Shown here one piece after another: positions 21,623-51,850 of a DNA stretch of 64,000 nt (positions are counted from its first letter, which is position 1; each line of letters opens with the position of its first letter). The notes under the pieces were generated by a model. It did no database searches, was not told the DNA's origin, and saw only the letters and a program-made list of their open reading frames with translations. The DNA lies in IMG/VR virus record IMGVR_UViG_3300030101_003058, positions 1 to 64,000 of that record; one strand, 5' to 3'. This stretch comes from a virus. A program made the translations under genes and the position numbers.

Positions 21623-22260
21623 AATTTCACCCGTCAGAGGAATCGACTGAGCGTTCAATGGAATTTCGGTGGGGGAATCAACTGCTGGCAGAGGTTTTCA
21701 TTTGTGTGCTGGCGAATTTTCAACTCCGGCAGACACTTCTGTTTTCTTCCGGATCGAATTTTGACTTTAAAATCAATGAATTACGACTTCCGGCACTTGT
21801 TTTCATCCGAGCCAGCTTTATGTATCGCTCAAAAAATTTCTAGAGAATCTACTTTTCATTTTTCATAGCTCAGATTTTAGTTAGCAAAACTATTAATTAG
21901 CATAAACAACTATTACATAAGCAACCTAACTATCTCGCTAGTTGGCAAAAGTTAGCTAAAGCAATTGTTTGAATTACTATTGATTGCCAGAATGTAGGGA
22001 CAGAATCGCAAGAATGATAAAAGAAATGTCTAATACTTTTTAGGACTAACAGGCGGGACTCTATAGATCAAAAGGTAATACGGAATTTTTTCCAGCGAGG
22101 GTGATTATCTCCTGCCTTATATTGCGCAGCCTGTACCTGAAAGAATAGTTGAACGGATACCAGAAAGCAAGCGAGTAGTTGAAAATAATTTATTGCTACT
22201 TTCTAATCCCGCGCATGCGTGACTAACACAAAAGAAAATCAAAAGTCAACAACGCTAAAA
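21623..22260. other. Non-coding region with phased T-tracts, an IHF site and MarR/SlyA-like repeats (candidate genome-terminus region)
   Basis: Recurrent (A/G)(A/T)TTTC tracts; AATCAATGAATTA at 21771; AGCAA..(T)AACTAT-like repeats at 21877-21960. Confidence 0.5.
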
Positions 22261-24962: not shown

Positions 24963-25208
24963 ATGCTTAAACGTATACACATAAACCAGCATAACATCCG
25001 ATACAATGCTAAGGCGGACAAGGGAACAGAACTAAAACCTGTGGTGTCTGTAAAGACTTCTAAGGGCAATTACAAGGGCATGACGACAGACATACTAGGC
25101 GATTCCAAAGTTGTGTACAGCGAGTCTAAGCCGCTTTCATGCGGGGCTAAGGTTTGGATAGAGACACGGGCCGTAGTTGTGCTAGATGGGATACTAGAAA
25201 TTAATTGA
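24963..25208 (+). CDS. Phage hypothetical protein (IHINQH...KPLSCGAKVWIET)
   Basis: GGAG RBS; motif familiar from phage hypotheticals. Confidence 0.7.
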   Translation: MLKRIHINQHNIRYNAKADKGTELKPVVSVKTSKGNYKGMTTDILGDSKVVYSESKPLSCGAKVWIETRAVVVLDGILEIN

Positions 25209-25294
25209 ATTCTTTTTGATTGTTCGCTTGCATTCTTTGAATAGCTCAACTAAGATGTTCATAACGTCAAACGAAACACCAAAGGAGAAACACT

Positions 25295-25450
25295 ATGAAC
25301 GGTTATCAATTGCTCACACAAGAACAGCGGGAAGATCTTGATAGGTTAGTTGAAAAGAATACCCATGCAGACATTACCCCACTAGAAGCAGCACACATAA
25401 GAGCCTATGAGGTTTTATGTGCACAATTGGAGATTGAGTACAGCAAGTAA
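25295..25450 (+). CDS. Small hypothetical protein
   Basis: Promoter TTGCAT-N17-TAAGAT; AGGAG RBS. Confidence 0.65.
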   Translation: MNGYQLLTQEQREDLDRLVEKNTHADITPLEAAHIRAYEVLCAQLEIEYSK

Positions 25451-25473
25451 AACAAACAAATAACTAAAGCATT

Positions 25474-25510
25474 GCCCCGGATTCTCTAAAGGATTGCCGG
25501 GGCTTTCTTA
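25474..25510 (+). terminator. Intrinsic terminator ending the early island
   Basis: GCCCCGG...CCGGGGC-TTTCTT. Confidence 0.7.
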
Positions 25511-25736
25511 TGTCTGATCAACACGTGACAAGGGTCATACAGGGCTACACAAAAGACTTTCCACAGGTAGCCTATGGGATAGCATAGGGATAGGCTAAAG
25601 GCTTGTCATAAGCGCTCTCAGGCTGTTCTATTAGATGCTTTAGATTGTCATTGTTTAGCTGCAATTCTCTTATGTGTTATTGGACTAAGTATCTACTTTA
25701 TTATCTCTTTGGCCTACTTCGGTTAAACCACCCAAG

Positions 25737-25831
25737 TTATCCACAGAACACTCTGACTTATCCACAGGCAACAATAGCAATCTAAAGTTATCCACAAGTA
25801 TGATCTAAAGTTATCCACAGACTTATCCACA
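25737..25831 (+). promoter_or_regulatory. Five co-oriented perfect DnaA boxes
   Basis: TTATCCACA at 25737, 25758, 25788, 25811 and 25823. Confidence 0.92.
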
Positions 25832-25871
25832 GGATGATCTGAAGGTATACACCTGTATACAATAGTATCAT

Positions 25872-25887
25872 TGGCACAACTATTGCT
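25872..25887 (+). promoter_or_regulatory. sigma54 -24/-12 element
   Basis: TGGCAC-AACTA-TTGCT matches TGGCAC-N5-TTGCW. Confidence 0.6.
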
Positions 25888-25981
25888 TATCAATAGCAAC
25901 CTAATATTATCTTAAGCAAGCTATCTAAATTATTCCGAAGGTATGCCGGGGGGGATCTTATGTAGTTCTATTGTGTGCTAG

Positions 25982-25997
25982 TGTTTCACGTGGAACG
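25982..25997. promoter_or_regulatory. parS (ParB-binding) site
   Basis: TGTTTCACGTGGAACG matches 15/16 of TGTT(T/C)CACGTG(A/G)AACA. Confidence 0.8.
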
Positions 25998-26534
25998 TTC
26001 TAGGGGATAGTTTTGGTTAGCTATGGTTGCCAGTGTATAGCCAAGGGATTTAATAGAGTTATCCTTTCAGGGATTACTATTGATATTTTGGGATTTCATT
26101 AGGATGCTATATAGGCGGCTCCGGACTGTCTTAACAGGTCTTGACCAAATCTGAGGAAATACCAGTACAACCCTTGGTACACAAGGGATTAGCACAAGAA
26201 TGCTGTTGATATTTACCAGAAAGAAAATCTAGTGGAATTTTTAGCGCCTATAGTAATCTGTAGAAGAGTAGGGAATTCTAACAAAATCAACAGTTTATAC
26301 TTATATAGCACAAGTATATAAATCAAAATAAATCAAAAATTAACTGTTGACTTTCCTTTGACAACCATAAGTTGACACAGAGAACACACATGAGTGTTGT
26401 TGGTGTATACTTAAGAGGATCTGTTGAGTAGCACAGGTAGGTACACCCCTGCTCTCCTTGCAGTCGATCAGGTAGGATATTTTTCAGATGTGCTTTAGGT
26501 AGGACTTTTGAAATGCAGGTGATATTTCTGGAGA

Positions 26535-26700
26535 AAATTTAGGAAGGTTCTAAAATATCAAAGGTATCCTTAAGAAGGGAGAATTTATTATTCTTATTTC
26601 TCCCTTTCTAAAGCTACACTTTAGCAACCTAAGTTTCTATATAAAATACCTCTGTATTCTAGGGCACTAAAATAAAGTACCTTAGAAATCAATAGTTTAC
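26535..26700. repeat. Phased-repeat plus hairpin element, copy C
   Basis: AAGGTATCCTTA shared with 51639; AAGGGAGAA...TTCTCCCTT stem; IHF site at 26687. Confidence 0.55.
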
Positions 26701-26744
26701 AGAGGAAATTTGCTGATTTTAGACGTTTTGAATCGTAGAAACGT

Positions 26745-28073
26745 CTAAGTGTATTTTCCAGACATCCAATCGTACATTCCATCACGTACTCTTGAGCTTG
26801 GAATATAGATATTCACAGGTTCATCATTACGTACTCTACTTCGATAGATCATCTGTAGAGCTTCAGCAAGCATGTACCTAGTAGGATCTGGTGCAAACTC
26901 ATCACCCTTACGTTTGAGGTGTTTGTATATCTCAGGACTCATGTAAGGATTATACACATAAGCAATCTTGGATACGCCAGCATAACTGTTGACAGCTTTG
27001 ATGTTGTGTGGAACAAACCTTCGTGTATACCCCTTACCTTTAAGCAACCCTGAACCACCTTTGAGACAAGTCCACATACGTTCTTCCATTGGTGCATAAC
27101 CATATGTATTATTGTTGAAGAAGTTGATCAGGTTTTGCTTGGTGGTGTCTACAACAGCATGTGATCTCTGGAAGGCTTTCTGGTGAGTTGCTGAGAAGGC
27201 TTCTAAACGTTCTCCCACTCGATTCATCCTTTCGTTCTCTACGATTCTAATGAGATCAAAAGGATTCTCAGGAATCATAATACCTTTCTTGTGTTCGTAG
27301 GGTATACCATAGCACATAAGGTATTTCTGGAACACACTACCTTCAAACATATAGGTCATAACTTCAACACGATCAAAAGCAGTGATGAACTCTATTGGAT
27401 ATTCCCACATAAACAACTTTCGATCCCCTGTGTCGTCATCAACAAGTAGAAGAGAACCGTTCTTGCACATTCTCTTGATACGTTGTTCCCAAGATAACCC
27501 TGTGCCATCTATGTCAGATTCTTCATCATCAGAACTTGCATCATCTGGTGCTACCCACCTGAGTAGTCCAAAGTCATCTTCCTCAACAAACCCACTGTTC
27601 AAAAGCATCATCCTACGTTCCTTGCGAAGACGTAGTTGCTCAATACACTCAAGTTCCTCATCAACAATAAGAGTGTAGCCGTTGTCCTTGATTGCTTGTC
27701 GTGTTTCTGGTGTGAACATCTTGAGGGCAGCATGTGTGGTTACGATGTCTCTGCCCTCTTGTACCAGCCTTTCGATGTCTTGTACCTTGTTTCTATAGCC
27801 AGCAATGGGGTGGTGGAACTCCCTACCAGAAGCATTACAGCCTGTACCGTTGTAGATCACACGCCCGCGTTCGTCTGTGGCAGGTTTTTTCTTATCACCA
27901 GATTTCTCACAAGGGATTGTACCAGCATACCTGTGACACTCATCTAGAAAGGGTGCTACAACAATATATCTGTTTTCTTCTGGCGCGTTGTTAATGGTTT
28001 CTATCATTCTTGTGGACTTTCCGGTGCCCATCAAGTGGTCGTGTACGATTACATTAGTCATACCTTCCCTCAA
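26745..28073 (-). CDS. SF2 helicase-like protein (candidate origin-binding protein)
   Basis: MGTGKST Walker A, VVAPFLDE, IVTTHA, LIVDEE, QMIYRSRVR motif VI. Confidence 0.75.
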   Translation of the reverse strand: MREGMTNVIVHDHLMGTGKSTRMIETINNAPEENRYIVVAPFLDECHRYAGTIPCEKSGDKKKPATDERGRVIYNGTGCNASGREFHHPIAGYRNKVQDIERLVQEGRDIVTTHAALKMFTPETRQAIKDNGYTLIVDEELECIEQLRLRKERRMMLLNSGFVEEDDFGLLRWVAPDDASSDDEESDIDGTGLSWEQRIKRMCKNGSLLLVDDDTGDRKLFMWEYPIEFITAFDRVEVMTYMFEGSVFQKYLMCYGIPYEHKKGIMIPENPFDLIRIVENERMNRVGERLEAFSATHQKAFQRSHAVVDTTKQNLINFFNNNTYGYAPMEERMWTCLKGGSGLLKGKGYTRRFVPHNIKAVNSYAGVSKIAYVYNPYMSPEIYKHLKRKGDEFAPDPTRYMLAEALQMIYRSRVRNDEPVNIYIPSSRVRDGMYDWMSGKYT

Positions 28074-40638: not shown

Positions 40639-42888
40639 TTAAAGTTTACAGGATTCACAGTCTTCTTCATCCTCTTGCTCTTGCACTTTCCCATTGATCG
40701 AGGTGTAGCTGTTGATATAGTAACGAGTCTTCATGCCCATTTTGGTCATGTATAGATAATCCGAAATCATCTCTTTAGTTGTTACAGCATCAGAACCAAT
40801 GATCTTTCTGTAGAGGTCCGCAGAAATCGCTTGGTCTGTCCATTTTTGAACAATAGCATATACGTCTACAAGATCTTTCGTTGGTATCTCCCAAGAGCTT
40901 TCGTACCACTTCTGCAATCTTTCACCTTCAGGAGCAGCCCAGTAGACAACATTACTAAGATCAGTCTTCATCATAGTCAACTCGCGGATCGGATAGATAC
41001 CGTTGGTTGTACCAGACGCTTTTGAGCTACTTTCCCCCGGCATGTGATTGATCAAAGAACTGTTCCGAATACCACCGTTGTCAATAATGTCTCGCCTAAG
41101 ACTTTCCCAGTCAAATGTCAGATCAGAAGAAGCAACATTATCCACATTACGGTTATACGTGTCAATAGGCAACCAGCCTTCGGGCCACTTTGTTCGATCC
41201 ATCCAAGGCGCTACACCGAGTTCTTTGGAAAGCCTCAGGGATGCCTTGATTACGCTGTAGGCGTGTTGCTCACCAAGTTTATTGATTAACTCTTTACCTT
41301 CTGGAGAACTATAGTTTACTTTGTTTTTTGCAAGGTAGTGTGCCATACCCATCAGACCAATGCCAGCATTTAGACGAGACTTTGCTGTTACCCCAACATG
41401 CGGCAACGGATAGTCTGCCTTGTGTATACATTTGTCCACCATTAGTAAAGCATAGTAGGCAGCATCTTCGTATTGCTTTTGATCTTTGATATTAGCTGCA
41501 TTGATAGCACCTAAGCTACACATCGCCACCTCACCAACGCGCTCTGGATTGTCAGAGTACAGATCAGACATGGACTCGTATGCTTTTGTCGGCAATGATG
41601 TCTCTGTGCACAAGTTTGAGGTATACACAGGATCTTTGTGTGGAGTATGCCGATTCATCTCATCAGCCCACATCATGTAGGCTTTACCTGTCTCGTAAGC
41701 CTCGTTTAATTGAGACAGAAGAATCTCACGAGCACTTACCCAAGTTTTCTTAAACTTATTATTGCTTTCGTATTTATTGTAGACTTTTTCGAACTCTTCC
41801 GCATCCCCCGAGAACATTGCCGCTGTCAAATCTGGTGCAGTGAAGACATTAAACAAGAATATATCTTCGTTCTTGGCAACCTTCTTGGCAAAAAACTTGT
41901 TCTGAAGCATTGCATAGTCAAGACCACGGATTTGTTTGTCCTTGGTGGTCATGGGATTCTTCAGTTTGCTAATGTCAACAGCTTCTGGATCAAATGCGCT
42001 AAAGTAGGTTGTGCAGGCACCTCCACGTCCAGCTTGTAGGTTCGCATGTACCGCCCCATCAAGCGACCTGTAGTACGGGAGCTTACCTTGGTGTTTGATT
42101 GCACCGTTGCGGACAGGATCACCAACAGAGCGTGACTCGATGTACGATCCAATACCTGCGCTCATGTACGTCATTGTGTACGCAATATGATCACCTACTG
42201 CCAAGGACGTAGCAGAATCACCAGATTTATAAATACAGCAACTCGCAAGCCCATTGAAAGGCGTACCGAGGTTGATGTAGTTAGGTGTCGGCGCATTGAT
42301 ACGTTTACACGAGAAATTATCATACCATGCTTTTACATCATCTAACTTACGTTCTTTCGCCTGATCTTCGGCAAGAGCCATTGCCATTCTCATGTATACA
42401 AACTGCTGTGACTCGTATTCTTCACCGGTGACACGGTTGCGTAGCGAGTATTTCTTCCGAACCTGTTCAAGCTCAAAATGAGCAGCTTTAAAATCTCTCT
42501 TGTGGTCAATGAACTTATCAACTTGCTCGTATTCTTCCTCAGAGTAGTTGAGAGTTTTCATCAGACCCTTGCTTTGGAGTTTCTCATGCAGTTCTTTAAT
42601 AGTTGGTGGTGTACCGTTGTACAGCTTCTTGTTCAAAAGCGCAGCATAAAGTCTACCTGCCATTCTGTTATAAGACCAACTATTGTTATCCAAACAAGTC
42701 TTGATAAGACGCTCCTGTAAAAGTTCTGAGGGGCAGGTTTCGGGGCAAGTGCTTACTGTGTGGATTACAACGCTACTCCAGTCTACGTAGCGACCTAAAG
42801 TCTTACTTGCCCACTCACCCCATTTGTTTACTTTAGCGGGTTGAAACTCCTCAGTACTACCGTCCCGCTTCTTAATGTATTTTATCAC
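40639..42888 (-). CDS. nrdA: Ribonucleotide reductase class Ia alpha subunit
   Basis: ATP cone, PTP, ASCC, SNLCTE, C-terminal CESC. Confidence 0.96.
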   Translation of the reverse strand: MIKYIKKRDGSTEEFQPAKVNKWGEWASKTLGRYVDWSSVVIHTVSTCPETCPSELLQERLIKTCLDNNSWSYNRMAGRLYAALLNKKLYNGTPPTIKELHEKLQSKGLMKTLNYSEEEYEQVDKFIDHKRDFKAAHFELEQVRKKYSLRNRVTGEEYESQQFVYMRMAMALAEDQAKERKLDDVKAWYDNFSCKRINAPTPNYINLGTPFNGLASCCIYKSGDSATSLAVGDHIAYTMTYMSAGIGSYIESRSVGDPVRNGAIKHQGKLPYYRSLDGAVHANLQAGRGGACTTYFSAFDPEAVDISKLKNPMTTKDKQIRGLDYAMLQNKFFAKKVAKNEDIFLFNVFTAPDLTAAMFSGDAEEFEKVYNKYESNNKFKKTWVSAREILLSQLNEAYETGKAYMMWADEMNRHTPHKDPVYTSNLCTETSLPTKAYESMSDLYSDNPERVGEVAMCSLGAINAANIKDQKQYEDAAYYALLMVDKCIHKADYPLPHVGVTAKSRLNAGIGLMGMAHYLAKNKVNYSSPEGKELINKLGEQHAYSVIKASLRLSKELGVAPWMDRTKWPEGWLPIDTYNRNVDNVASSDLTFDWESLRRDIIDNGGIRNSSLINHMPGESSSKASGTTNGIYPIRELTMMKTDLSNVVYWAAPEGERLQKWYESSWEIPTKDLVDVYAIVQKWTDQAISADLYRKIIGSDAVTTKEMISDYLYMTKMGMKTRYYINSYTSINGKVQEQEDEEDCESCKL

Positions 42889-51539: not shown

Positions 51540-51850
51540 GTATCTATAGTTACTCTTAAGAGTATCCTCAGATGATTCTTGAGTTTGGAAGGTTCTCATT
51601 TCCACCTTCCCTTGTCAAGAGGTTACTGAGGTGTTCTTAAGGTATCCTTAGATTATCCTTAAGAGGGAAGGTAATGTGATTACCATTCCTTCCTTACCTA
51701 AGTTCTTTCTAAGAATGTTCTAGGGAATTCTTTAGATCATTCTTGTGTGATCTGTGTGTATCCCTGCGTTCCTTTGTTTTCTATTGTTTGAGTCTAACGG
51801 AATTTCTGATAACCGTCAACACCTAAGGTTTTCTGAGAATTTCTTTAGTT
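51540..51850 (-). repeat. Promoter plus phased-repeat element, copy B (inverted relative to A)
   Basis: TTGACG-N17-TAGACT at 51819-51791 plus downstream similarity to 12985-13060. Confidence 0.75.

Follow-up and report, generated by a model that had tools for sequence, protein, structure and literature searches.

Host-type DnaA, ParB, and σ54 motifs cluster in an intergenic gap of an uncultured marine phage and may couple it to the state of its host

INTRODUCTION

The locus analyzed here, a 1.3-kb gap between genes (positions 25451 to 26744) in the IMG/VR virus record IMGVR_UViG_3300030101_003058, has its closest described counterparts in the phages T5 and phi29. The injection-stop region of T5, iss, is a large untranslated and repeat-rich region with eight DnaA boxes in pairs 3 bp apart, which has been called “reminiscent of oriC” and is kept in 25 T5-like phages (Davison 2020, bioRxiv 10.1101/866236). 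According to the same preprint, which cites Heusterspreute 1987, the boxes form four pairs within inverted repeats and about half of them are variants; Davison proposes that membrane-bound DnaA halts injection and considers a replication role of the boxes unlikely (bioRxiv 10.1101/866236). The virulent phage phi29 carries five host parS (Spo0J) sites together with Spo0A boxes and uses them in cis, in an alternative infection strategy in which the lytic cycle is suppressed and the genome is segregated into the prespore (PMC2731898; work on phi29 and Nf by Meijer 2005, as cited there). “Origins” with DnaA boxes, of the kind produced by Ori-Finder, have also been predicted in other lytic phages (PMC11512268, PMC12484599).

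Throughout, “the window” refers to the whole stretch of DNA that was analyzed, i.e., positions 1 to 64,000 of the 87,036-bp record. A preliminary description of the window, made from its letters alone, had presented the gap as a phage-borne mimic of a host oriC region and as the best candidate for a new system. Judged by motif statistics and profile searches, the sites in the gap are above chance, apparently selected, and of host type for three proteins that are absent from the phage genome. Sequence comparison further indicates that the gap is neither a copied bacterial oriC nor one indivisible system.

RESULTS

Motifs for three host proteins exceed chance expectation

The gap separates a plus-strand block of small genes, which ends at 25450, from a minus-strand block whose last gene ends at 26745. 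Its longest open reading frame (ORF) encodes 58 amino acids (aa), in line with the initial remark that the region is ORF-free. Unless stated otherwise, motif counts were compared with those in 1,000 dinucleotide-preserving shuffles of the gap. Five perfect DnaA boxes (TTATCCACA), all on the plus strand, start at 25737, 25758, 25788, 25811, and 25823, i.e., within 95 nt and exactly where they had been reported; no shuffle reached five (mean, 0.013), and the sole other perfect box in the 87,036-bp record lies at 41138. Boxes 4 and 5 are paired, with 3 nt between them. Local duplications of a repeat unit of about 22 nt make up the array, and a sixth, degenerate unit (25831 to 25852) holds the first of the twin GTATAC palindromes (25845 and 25855; count reached in 7 of 1,000 shuffles). 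The “interspersed GATCT” of the preliminary description carries no weight, because GATC is not enriched: the array contains two GATCT, and the gap has 6 GATC versus 5.3 expected from the genome density.

At a distance of 41 nt downstream of the array, and co-oriented with it, stands a perfect σ54 core (found in 3 of 1,000 shuffles), which shows the −24 GG/−12 GC spacing of TGGCAC-N5-TTGCW at 25872 and is the only match in the record even if one mismatch is allowed. The region upstream of this core is occupied by the DnaA boxes, and the 114 nt 3′ of the array, which contain the core, have a GC content of 33%. The third host-type site, the parS sequence TGTTTCACGTGGAACG at 25982, agrees with the consensus at 15 of 16 positions; 2 of 1,000 shuffles reach parS at up to two mismatches. 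GGGATW, which is repeated on the 3′ side of parS, occurs 7 times in the gap versus 1.0 expected (0 of 500 shuffles). Profile searches for ParB_N, AAA_31 (ParA-type), DnaA_C, Sigma54_activat, and Sigma54_DBD found none of these domains across the record, so that the earlier observation that no dnaA or parB lies in the window holds for the entire 87,036 bp. Shuffles and domain searches together thus bear out one part of the preliminary description, namely, that non-random sites of host type are present without cognate phage proteins.

Likeness to bacterial origins ends at the DnaA boxes

Like oriC, datA, and DARS, the window has head-to-tail high-affinity R-type boxes, a pair spaced by 3 nt, and sites matching the consensus of IHF. 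A three-box pattern with the spacing of the window is found in at least 120 bacterial genomes from many phyla, and the gap resembles 120 bacterial box-array loci at positions 25728 to 25839 only. Genomes of E. coli contain no match to the gap, and there is therefore no link to the enterobacterial oriC. Contigs from two other studies join the region to the phage helicase-like gene. An assembly chimera, which had been named as a refuting finding, is thus not what we see: there is no E. coli match, the bacterial similarity stops at the boxes, and the phage context recurs independently. The wording “mimic of oriC” is nevertheless overstated. In contrast to oriC, the window lacks dnaA, dnaN, or an origin-linked gene and has no identity beyond the boxes; inspection by eye found no DnaA-trios or 13-mers adjoining the boxes, and the position of the unwinding element is taken by the σ54 core. 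None of the 120 bacterial loci shows such an arrangement; they contain seven σ54 cores, none of them near boxes.

The gap and the iss of T5 are both untranslated regions that follow small early genes and are crowded with palindromes and with direct and inverted repeats. Consensus DnaA boxes are present in each of them and include a 3-bp pair (25811 and 25823 in the window, where an inverted repeat also surrounds boxes 1 and 2), and both phages have their own replisome. However, the window has five perfect and co-oriented boxes, compared to eight in four pairs, about half of them variant, in T5, and the phage families differ, as shown by the DNA polymerase and the Mu-type portal (see below). 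Moreover, the boxes are strongly conserved in T5-like phages but not across the family of the window. To our knowledge, T5 has no parS, and E. coli has no ParABS. The box pair of the window matches 510 cultured phage records, mostly T5-like. Six of the 40 matches listed, to T5-like records (H86 to H91), fall near 9.44 kb in what is annotated as the “left terminal repeat”; some of the matches to T7-like and KP34-like phages are located at the ends of the genome, and microviruses are also among the matches. Several T7-like and KP34-like records have box pairs or arrays in unannotated DNA within their first ~250 nt, e.g., Shigella phage A7 (19 to 66), Enterobacter phage phiEap-1 (70 to 104), and the Klebsiella phages Kp7 (139 to 229) and ZK1 (70 to 145).

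With phi29 the window shares a virulent phage without its own ParB that carries a chromosomal-type parS together with sites for host master regulators; as expected of a phi29-type case, the site follows the chromosomal ParB consensus (15/16), and neither ParB_N, AAA_31, nor an integrase is present. The regulators differ, being Spo0A in phi29 and DnaA and σ54 in the window, and binding has been shown for phi29, whereas the sites of the window are predicted. Entrapment in a spore is also inapplicable to a marine, probably Gram-negative host. The phage-plasmids P1 and N15 and the mycobacteriophage prophages with ParABS resemble the window in having a centromere-like site on a phage genome. However, these elements encode their own ParA/ParB and have their own site types, whereas the window phage has neither and carries the chromosomal consensus; no parA or parB gene lies beside its parS.

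Natural variants separate the modules and keep their sites

Natural variants were read from assembled contigs of runs X5 to X8, in which the presence of a site can be demonstrated but its absence cannot. A 12.3-kb contig from X5, with 39 differences across 1331 nt of the helicase-like gene, keeps positions 25967 to 25999 (parS), 26014 to 26096 (the GGGATW block), 26283 to 26438, and everything from 26470, with 25513 to 25966, including the boxes and the σ54 core, swapped for 505 other letters. The parts are thus separable, since a near relative swaps the DnaA/σ54 block yet keeps parS. The box array is represented in runs X6 to X8, of which X7 and X8 contain a variant with the 48-nt stretch 25836 to 25883 replaced by 17 letters (joint 25835→25884), by which the twin GTATAC is lost; the replacement re-creates a −24 element at the correct distance (GG-N10-GC) from the kept −12 GC and places the σ54 core ~10 nt downstream of box 5. 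Where the differences listed include substitutions in the region of the core, these are located either outside it or in its N5 spacer. The copy number of the CAGGTAGG repeat differs as well, with skips of 31 to 35 nt (joints 26435/26438→26470/26471). As far as can be read from contigs, this pattern is as expected of separable, constrained modules.

Relatives of the flanking 442-aa helicase-like protein, six in IMG/VR and twelve in metagenomes, show 51 to 59% identity. An ORF-poor stretch of ~0.5 to 1.7 kb follows the helicase-like gene in all five IMG/VR relatives whose contig continues. The gap cannot be aligned with those of the six relatives, save for parS and CAGGTAGGA islands shared with one of them, L002, whose contig ends inside the gap. 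In the corresponding gaps, parS is perfect in L002 and matches at 15/16 in L128, where it likewise has four co-oriented GGGATW repeats on its 3′ side; the parS/GGGATW-bearing relatives of the window stand at 58% identity. Between the lineages of the window and L128, this whole parS-GGGATW module is inverted relative to the helicase-like gene. The CAGGTAGGA motif forms eight perfect tandem 14-nt units in L002 (6964 to 7077) and recurs in the three repeats of the window at 26434 to 26504; the eight copies extend as far as the end of the contig, where the repeat probably interrupted the assembly. No related IMG/VR loci were found via a 70% relative of the helicase-like protein (P0002).

The DnaA-σ54 pairing recurs in unrelated phage contigs

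A scan of IMG/VR for three co-oriented perfect DnaA boxes returned at least 120 stretches in 72 sequence clusters (1.0 Mb). These loci contain 35 GGCAC-N5-TTGC cores, 23 of them within 300 nt of a box, which corresponds to 0.25 cores per kb near boxes (≤300 nt) versus 0.013 per kb elsewhere, a 19-fold difference. A core near boxes is present in 16 of the 120 loci listed and in 4 of the 72 clusters (~0.4 expected by our own arithmetic). In 18 of the 23 cases the boxes lie upstream on the promoter strand, the polarity seen in the window, and the distance between box and core is often 12 nt (L033, L038, L061, and L124). In the podovirus-like contigs examined, the module is flanked by a packaging operon that runs leftward (large terminase, SU10/P22-type portal, and M15 peptidase) and an early operon that runs rightward; their σ54 cores are probably working promoters. 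A box array followed by one to four tandem cores can be seen at L033:10194-10460, L038:9082-9230, L061:2640-2800, L124:3560-3800, L088:5018-5130, and L117:278-530, and the cores of L038 and L061 are imperfect 38-nt palindromes, i.e., two divergent overlapping cores.

A parS with at most one mismatch lies 15 and 151 nt from the box arrays of two other phage contigs, L077 and L109, where ~0.015 such cases would be expected (own arithmetic). These parS sites (L077:3230-3330 and L109:3740-3960) are perfect or 15/16, are nested in the boxes or lie 151 nt from them, and adjoin consensus σ70 promoters upstream of terminase genes.

When cultured phages were searched with the DnaA-to-σ54 composite, the box part alone was matched, and hence no cultured model of the composite was found. 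A pairing of DnaA-box array and σ54 core in phages was not found in print, in a search mostly without subscription journals. On the contig evidence, the recurrent co-polar pairing of predicted DnaA arrays and σ54 cores in unrelated phage contigs is new here.

Other features of the gap, its flanks, and the phage

Coordinates of all features are collected in Table 1. Most of the smaller elements named in the preliminary description were found again, among them a putative gyrase-site-like repeat at 25538, the CCCTTG-N5-CAAGGG palindrome at 26171 and the three AGGTAGG repeats, which are of the CAGGTAGG type and start at 26434, 26469, and 26496 (two CAGGTAGG are reached in 1 of 1,000 shuffles). The two matches to the IHF consensus (26285 and 26687) proved to be two copies of one 14-nt repeat (two matches in 9 of 1,000 shuffles). 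The supposed SlyA/MarR-like boxes exist as a TAGCAACCTAA-type motif with four copies in the gap at up to one mismatch (0 of 1,000 shuffles). Copies with one mismatch are also present at 21919, in noncoding DNA left of the small-gene island, and at 51845, at the 51.8-kb divergence point; this recurrence is more in keeping with an operator specific to the phage than with a SlyA site of the host. The AT-rich tract has 18% GC over 26280 to 26345. The hairpin at the left end of the gap is unlisted by the terminator scan, as its loop is above the limit of the scan. The hairpin at 26564 to 26617, read by eye, is probably a bidirectional terminator for the minus-strand helicase-like gene.

TABLE 1 Features of the gap and of the adjoining helicase-like gene (coordinates of the window)
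Feature	Position	Strand	Basis and remarks
Terminator-like hairpin GCCCCGG...CCGGGGC, then T-run	25474..25509	+	By eye; ends plus-strand block of small early-type genes
18-nt inverted repeat enclosing DnaA boxes 1 and 2	Arms 25638-25655, 25770-25787		89% complementary (pair I2)
DnaA-box array, five perfect co-oriented boxes	25737..25831	+	Motif scan, shuffles; covered in runs X6-X8, replaced in X5
Degenerate sixth unit and twin GTATAC palindromes	25831..25860	+	Repeat family D3; variable, lost in natural variant
σ54 (−24/−12) promoter core TGGCAC-N5-TTGCT	25872..25887	+	Rightward into ORF-free DNA; motif scan, shuffles
Chromosomal-type parS TGTTTCACGTGGAACG	25982..25997		15/16 to palindromic consensus
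Four co-oriented GGGATW repeats 3′ of parS	26004..26095	+	Module common to window and L128
Palindrome CCCTTG-N5-CAAGGG	26171..26187		Inside block replaced in X5
AT-rich tract, 16-nt inverted repeat (I6), tandem ATAAATCAAA, IHF match 26285, then three TTGAC repeats	26280..26377		
Three CAGGTAGG-type iteron-like repeats	26434..26504	+	Starts 26434, 26469, 26496; copy number varies naturally
Hairpin GGGAGAA...TTCTCCC flanked by T-runs	26564..26617		Inverted repeat I3
Second copy of 14-nt AAATCAAYAGTTTA repeat (IHF-consensus match)	26686..26699	+	Repeat family D13
442-aa superfamily 2 (SF2) helicase-like P-loop protein (phrog_2467)	26745..28073	-	Adjoins long gap in all relatives found

No match to the gap was found among cultured phages (blastn, distant mode). 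Rfam returned only sub-threshold chance matches on 25000 to 27200 and therefore no known RNA family, and a scan for σ70 promoters and terminators found fewer promoter-like sites than in shuffles. The cumulative GC-skew maximum at the gap was dropped as evidence for an origin or terminus, because the skew tracks the gene strand here.

The 442-aa protein encoded next to the gap has Walker A and B motifs, with G16, G18, K19, D138, and E139 invariant. Its AlphaFold2 model (pLDDT [predicted local distance difference test], 87.8) gave DinG, XPD, and CasDinG as the best Foldseek matches (E values of 5e-7 to 1e-4; template modeling [TM] score, ~0.4 to 0.5). The predicted fold thus resembles SF2 helicases of the DinG/XPD type and not a known initiator. 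There are 211 homologues at E ≤ 1e-5, including one 94% and two 70% relatives from Logan assemblies, and the protein is homologous to YonV of SPbeta. A sequence search of the PDB with the profile of the protein found nothing, and PF27199 is its precomputed, unconfirmed Pfam label. Two cultured relatives, Vibrio phage VH-8 and Edwardsiella phage ET-ABTNL-9, have the helicase-like gene in a different context.

The record is classed as linear by IMG/VR and as 100% complete by CheckV, and it is without end repeats. It encodes virulent-type tailed-phage functions: a family-A DNA polymerase (PolA) with exonuclease, both ribonucleotide reductase subunits, a Mu-type portal, an S49 protease, a T4-type large terminase, a primase/helicase (phrog_239), an exonuclease, thymidylate synthase, PhoH, and RNA ligase. 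It therefore has its own polymerase and helicase, as initially stated, and no tyrosine integrase was found in the record. The closest cultured PolA proteins belong to Pseudaeromonas, Aeromonas, and Vibrio phages and PAK_P3-type Pseudomonas myoviruses (39 to 42% identity). Sequence words of the region are found in full in marine metagenome runs of one study, from which the record probably stems, and partially in runs of other studies. The phage is a marine, myovirus-type, virulent-type, uncultured one. The first 1,000 nt of the window have 57% GC, compared to ~42% elsewhere, and precede a probable tail fiber or decoration gene, whose 705-aa product has Big_13 and fn3 domains.

DISCUSSION

We propose, with a rough probability of 0.4, that the gap serves in cis as an accessory and modular docking region for DNA-binding proteins of the host, which would couple the phage to the state of its host. 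Module 1 would consist of the head-to-tail high-affinity DnaA boxes just upstream of, and co-oriented with, the putative σ54 promoter; module 2 of the host-type parS, followed by the four co-oriented GGGATW repeats; and module 3 of the AT-rich tract and the CAGGTAGG iterons, to which a protein of the phage probably binds. Host DnaA may load on the array and gate the adjacent σ54 promoter, from which a noncoding transcript would cross parS, the AT-rich tract, and the iterons. Host ParB, loading at parS, would hold or partition the phage genome. The activity and inheritance of the phage DNA would thereby be tied to the growth and replication state of the host, and the outcome might be an alternative or delayed infection mode like that of phi29 with its host Spo0J-parS and Spo0A boxes. 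The sites themselves are real, non-random, constrained in natural variants, and recurrent as combinations in unrelated phages; it is the binding of host proteins and the effect of this binding that we infer.

Several points weigh against this proposal. It takes for granted that the marine host has ParABS and σ54, which we assume. There is one parS here compared to five in phi29. Neither a site for an enhancer-binding protein upstream of the σ54 core nor a gene downstream of it was found, and the gap has no plus-strand ORF of at least 30 aa after 25785 and thus none beyond the core. The independent lineages that support the pairing of boxes and cores are few (four clusters plus the window), because a single large cluster of podovirus-like contigs accounts for 13 of the 16 loci with a core near boxes. 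Likewise, the parS-DnaA pairing is rare rather than general, since, of 119 viral loci in which parS is perfect, none shows a box array at a distance of up to 500 nt, and only six have at least one perfect box in that range. Finally, five complete distant relatives (84 to 93 kb) have 0 to 3 perfect DnaA boxes each, unclustered, and neither a parS at up to one mismatch nor a σ54 core. Conservation in relatives, which the preliminary description had set as a test, is divided: parS is present in L002 and L128 and kept in X5, but all three sites are missing in 5/5 complete distant relatives. It follows from the latter that the host sites are accessory to the sublineage of the window and not the essential origin of the family. 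With module 1 also lacking in X5, the modules are dispensable and may act separately. This separability, the absence from the distant relatives, and the precedents in print for T5 and phi29 are also why we do not retain the idea of a single undescribed system.

What else could such a collection of sites be for? A DnaA-dependent phage replication origin (oriLyt) of the theta type, comparable to P1 oriR and pSC101, which combine boxes, a promoter, an AT-rich tract, IHF sites, and iterons, would account for the finding that all classical origin ingredients lie within 1.3 kb. The 18% GC tract, the varying iteron copy number, the long ORF-poor stretch after the helicase-like gene in the five continuing relatives, and the location of the region at the boundary of two transcription blocks would fit as well. 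We nevertheless regard an oriLyt as unlikely. DnaA cannot be the initiator of the family, because clustered boxes occur in 0/5 complete relatives and X5 swaps the box block. Furthermore, the AT-rich tract is ~450 nt away from the boxes, no DnaA-trio or 13-mer was seen beside the array, the phage has its own primase/helicase and PolA, and the GC-skew maximum merely follows gene orientation.

Alternatively, the gap could be a decoy or sponge that takes up scarce host DnaA, ParB, and σ54 holoenzyme as the phage DNA multiplies, shutting down host initiation, segregation, and σ54 regulons. Each of the three kinds of site binds its protein stably and needs no cofactor to do so. That the sites match their consensus perfectly or almost so, unlike regulatory-grade variants, that no gene follows the σ54 core, and that the modules come and go like accessory host-takeover functions would agree with this idea. 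However, a sponge would need neither the fixed polarity nor the short spacing between boxes and core that are seen in unrelated phages, and one parS and one σ54 site per genome would make a weak sink. In addition, the podovirus-like cores lie upstream of early operons, which argues that they act as promoters. We therefore consider a sponge quite unlikely.

An injection stop of the T5 type, or an anchor for the first-entering DNA via largely membrane-associated DnaA, is a further alternative, and one that we judge improbable. The layout does resemble that of iss, being untranslated, placed after small early genes, and rich in repeats, with boxes that include the 3-bp pair. The matches of the paired-box stretch to mostly T5-like records, six of them in the left terminal repeat, and of some T7-like and KP34-like phages at their genome ends point in the same direction. 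Against it, the gene content is not T5-like, the record is linear without end repeats, the contig ends of relatives are not consistently near the gap, and the distant relatives are without boxes; even in T5 itself, the role of DnaA is only a hypothesis. Finally, it is highly improbable that the sites are chance or passenger DNA, i.e., relics of recombined host DNA, for although many relatives lack the modules and the gap sequence around them changes rapidly, there is no bacterial similarity beyond the boxes, perfect sites persist amid diverging surroundings, unrelated phages show the combination again in a fixed polarity, and the shuffles exclude chance.

Since an essential origin is unlikely, a sponge does not fit the polarity, and a T5-type stop can be judged only from the physical ends, we favor, with modest confidence, a role of the gap in host-state-coupled control and partition, as in phi29. 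A more specific form of this proposal, to which we give little credence, is that a DnaA-ATP filament on the co-oriented boxes itself activates the σ54 promoter by melting the DNA 3′ of the array. The unwinding element of oriC lies ~11 to 12 bp from box R1. Such melting would open the σ54 closed complex without a conventional enhancer-binding protein. If this was the case, the DnaA-array-to-σ54 cassette would be a promoter that fires only in hosts competent for replication initiation and that is used by several unrelated phage lineages. In the window phage, its transcript would enter the parS/iteron region that governs where and whether the genome is kept.

As a rule, virulent phages are regarded as not depending on the chromosome-cycle proteins of their hosts, and the locus described here would join the few known cases, T5 and phi29. 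The sites for host proteins seem to behave as exchangeable modules. The carriage of such sites is a pattern known from T5 and phi29; their combination is new. The basis of phenomena such as persistent virulent phages and pseudolysogeny has been described as open (bioRxiv 10.1101/2024.12.31.630880). If ParB-parS were to hold genomes of this kind in slow-growing cells, it would provide a mechanism for the “persistent virulent phage” or pseudolysogeny.

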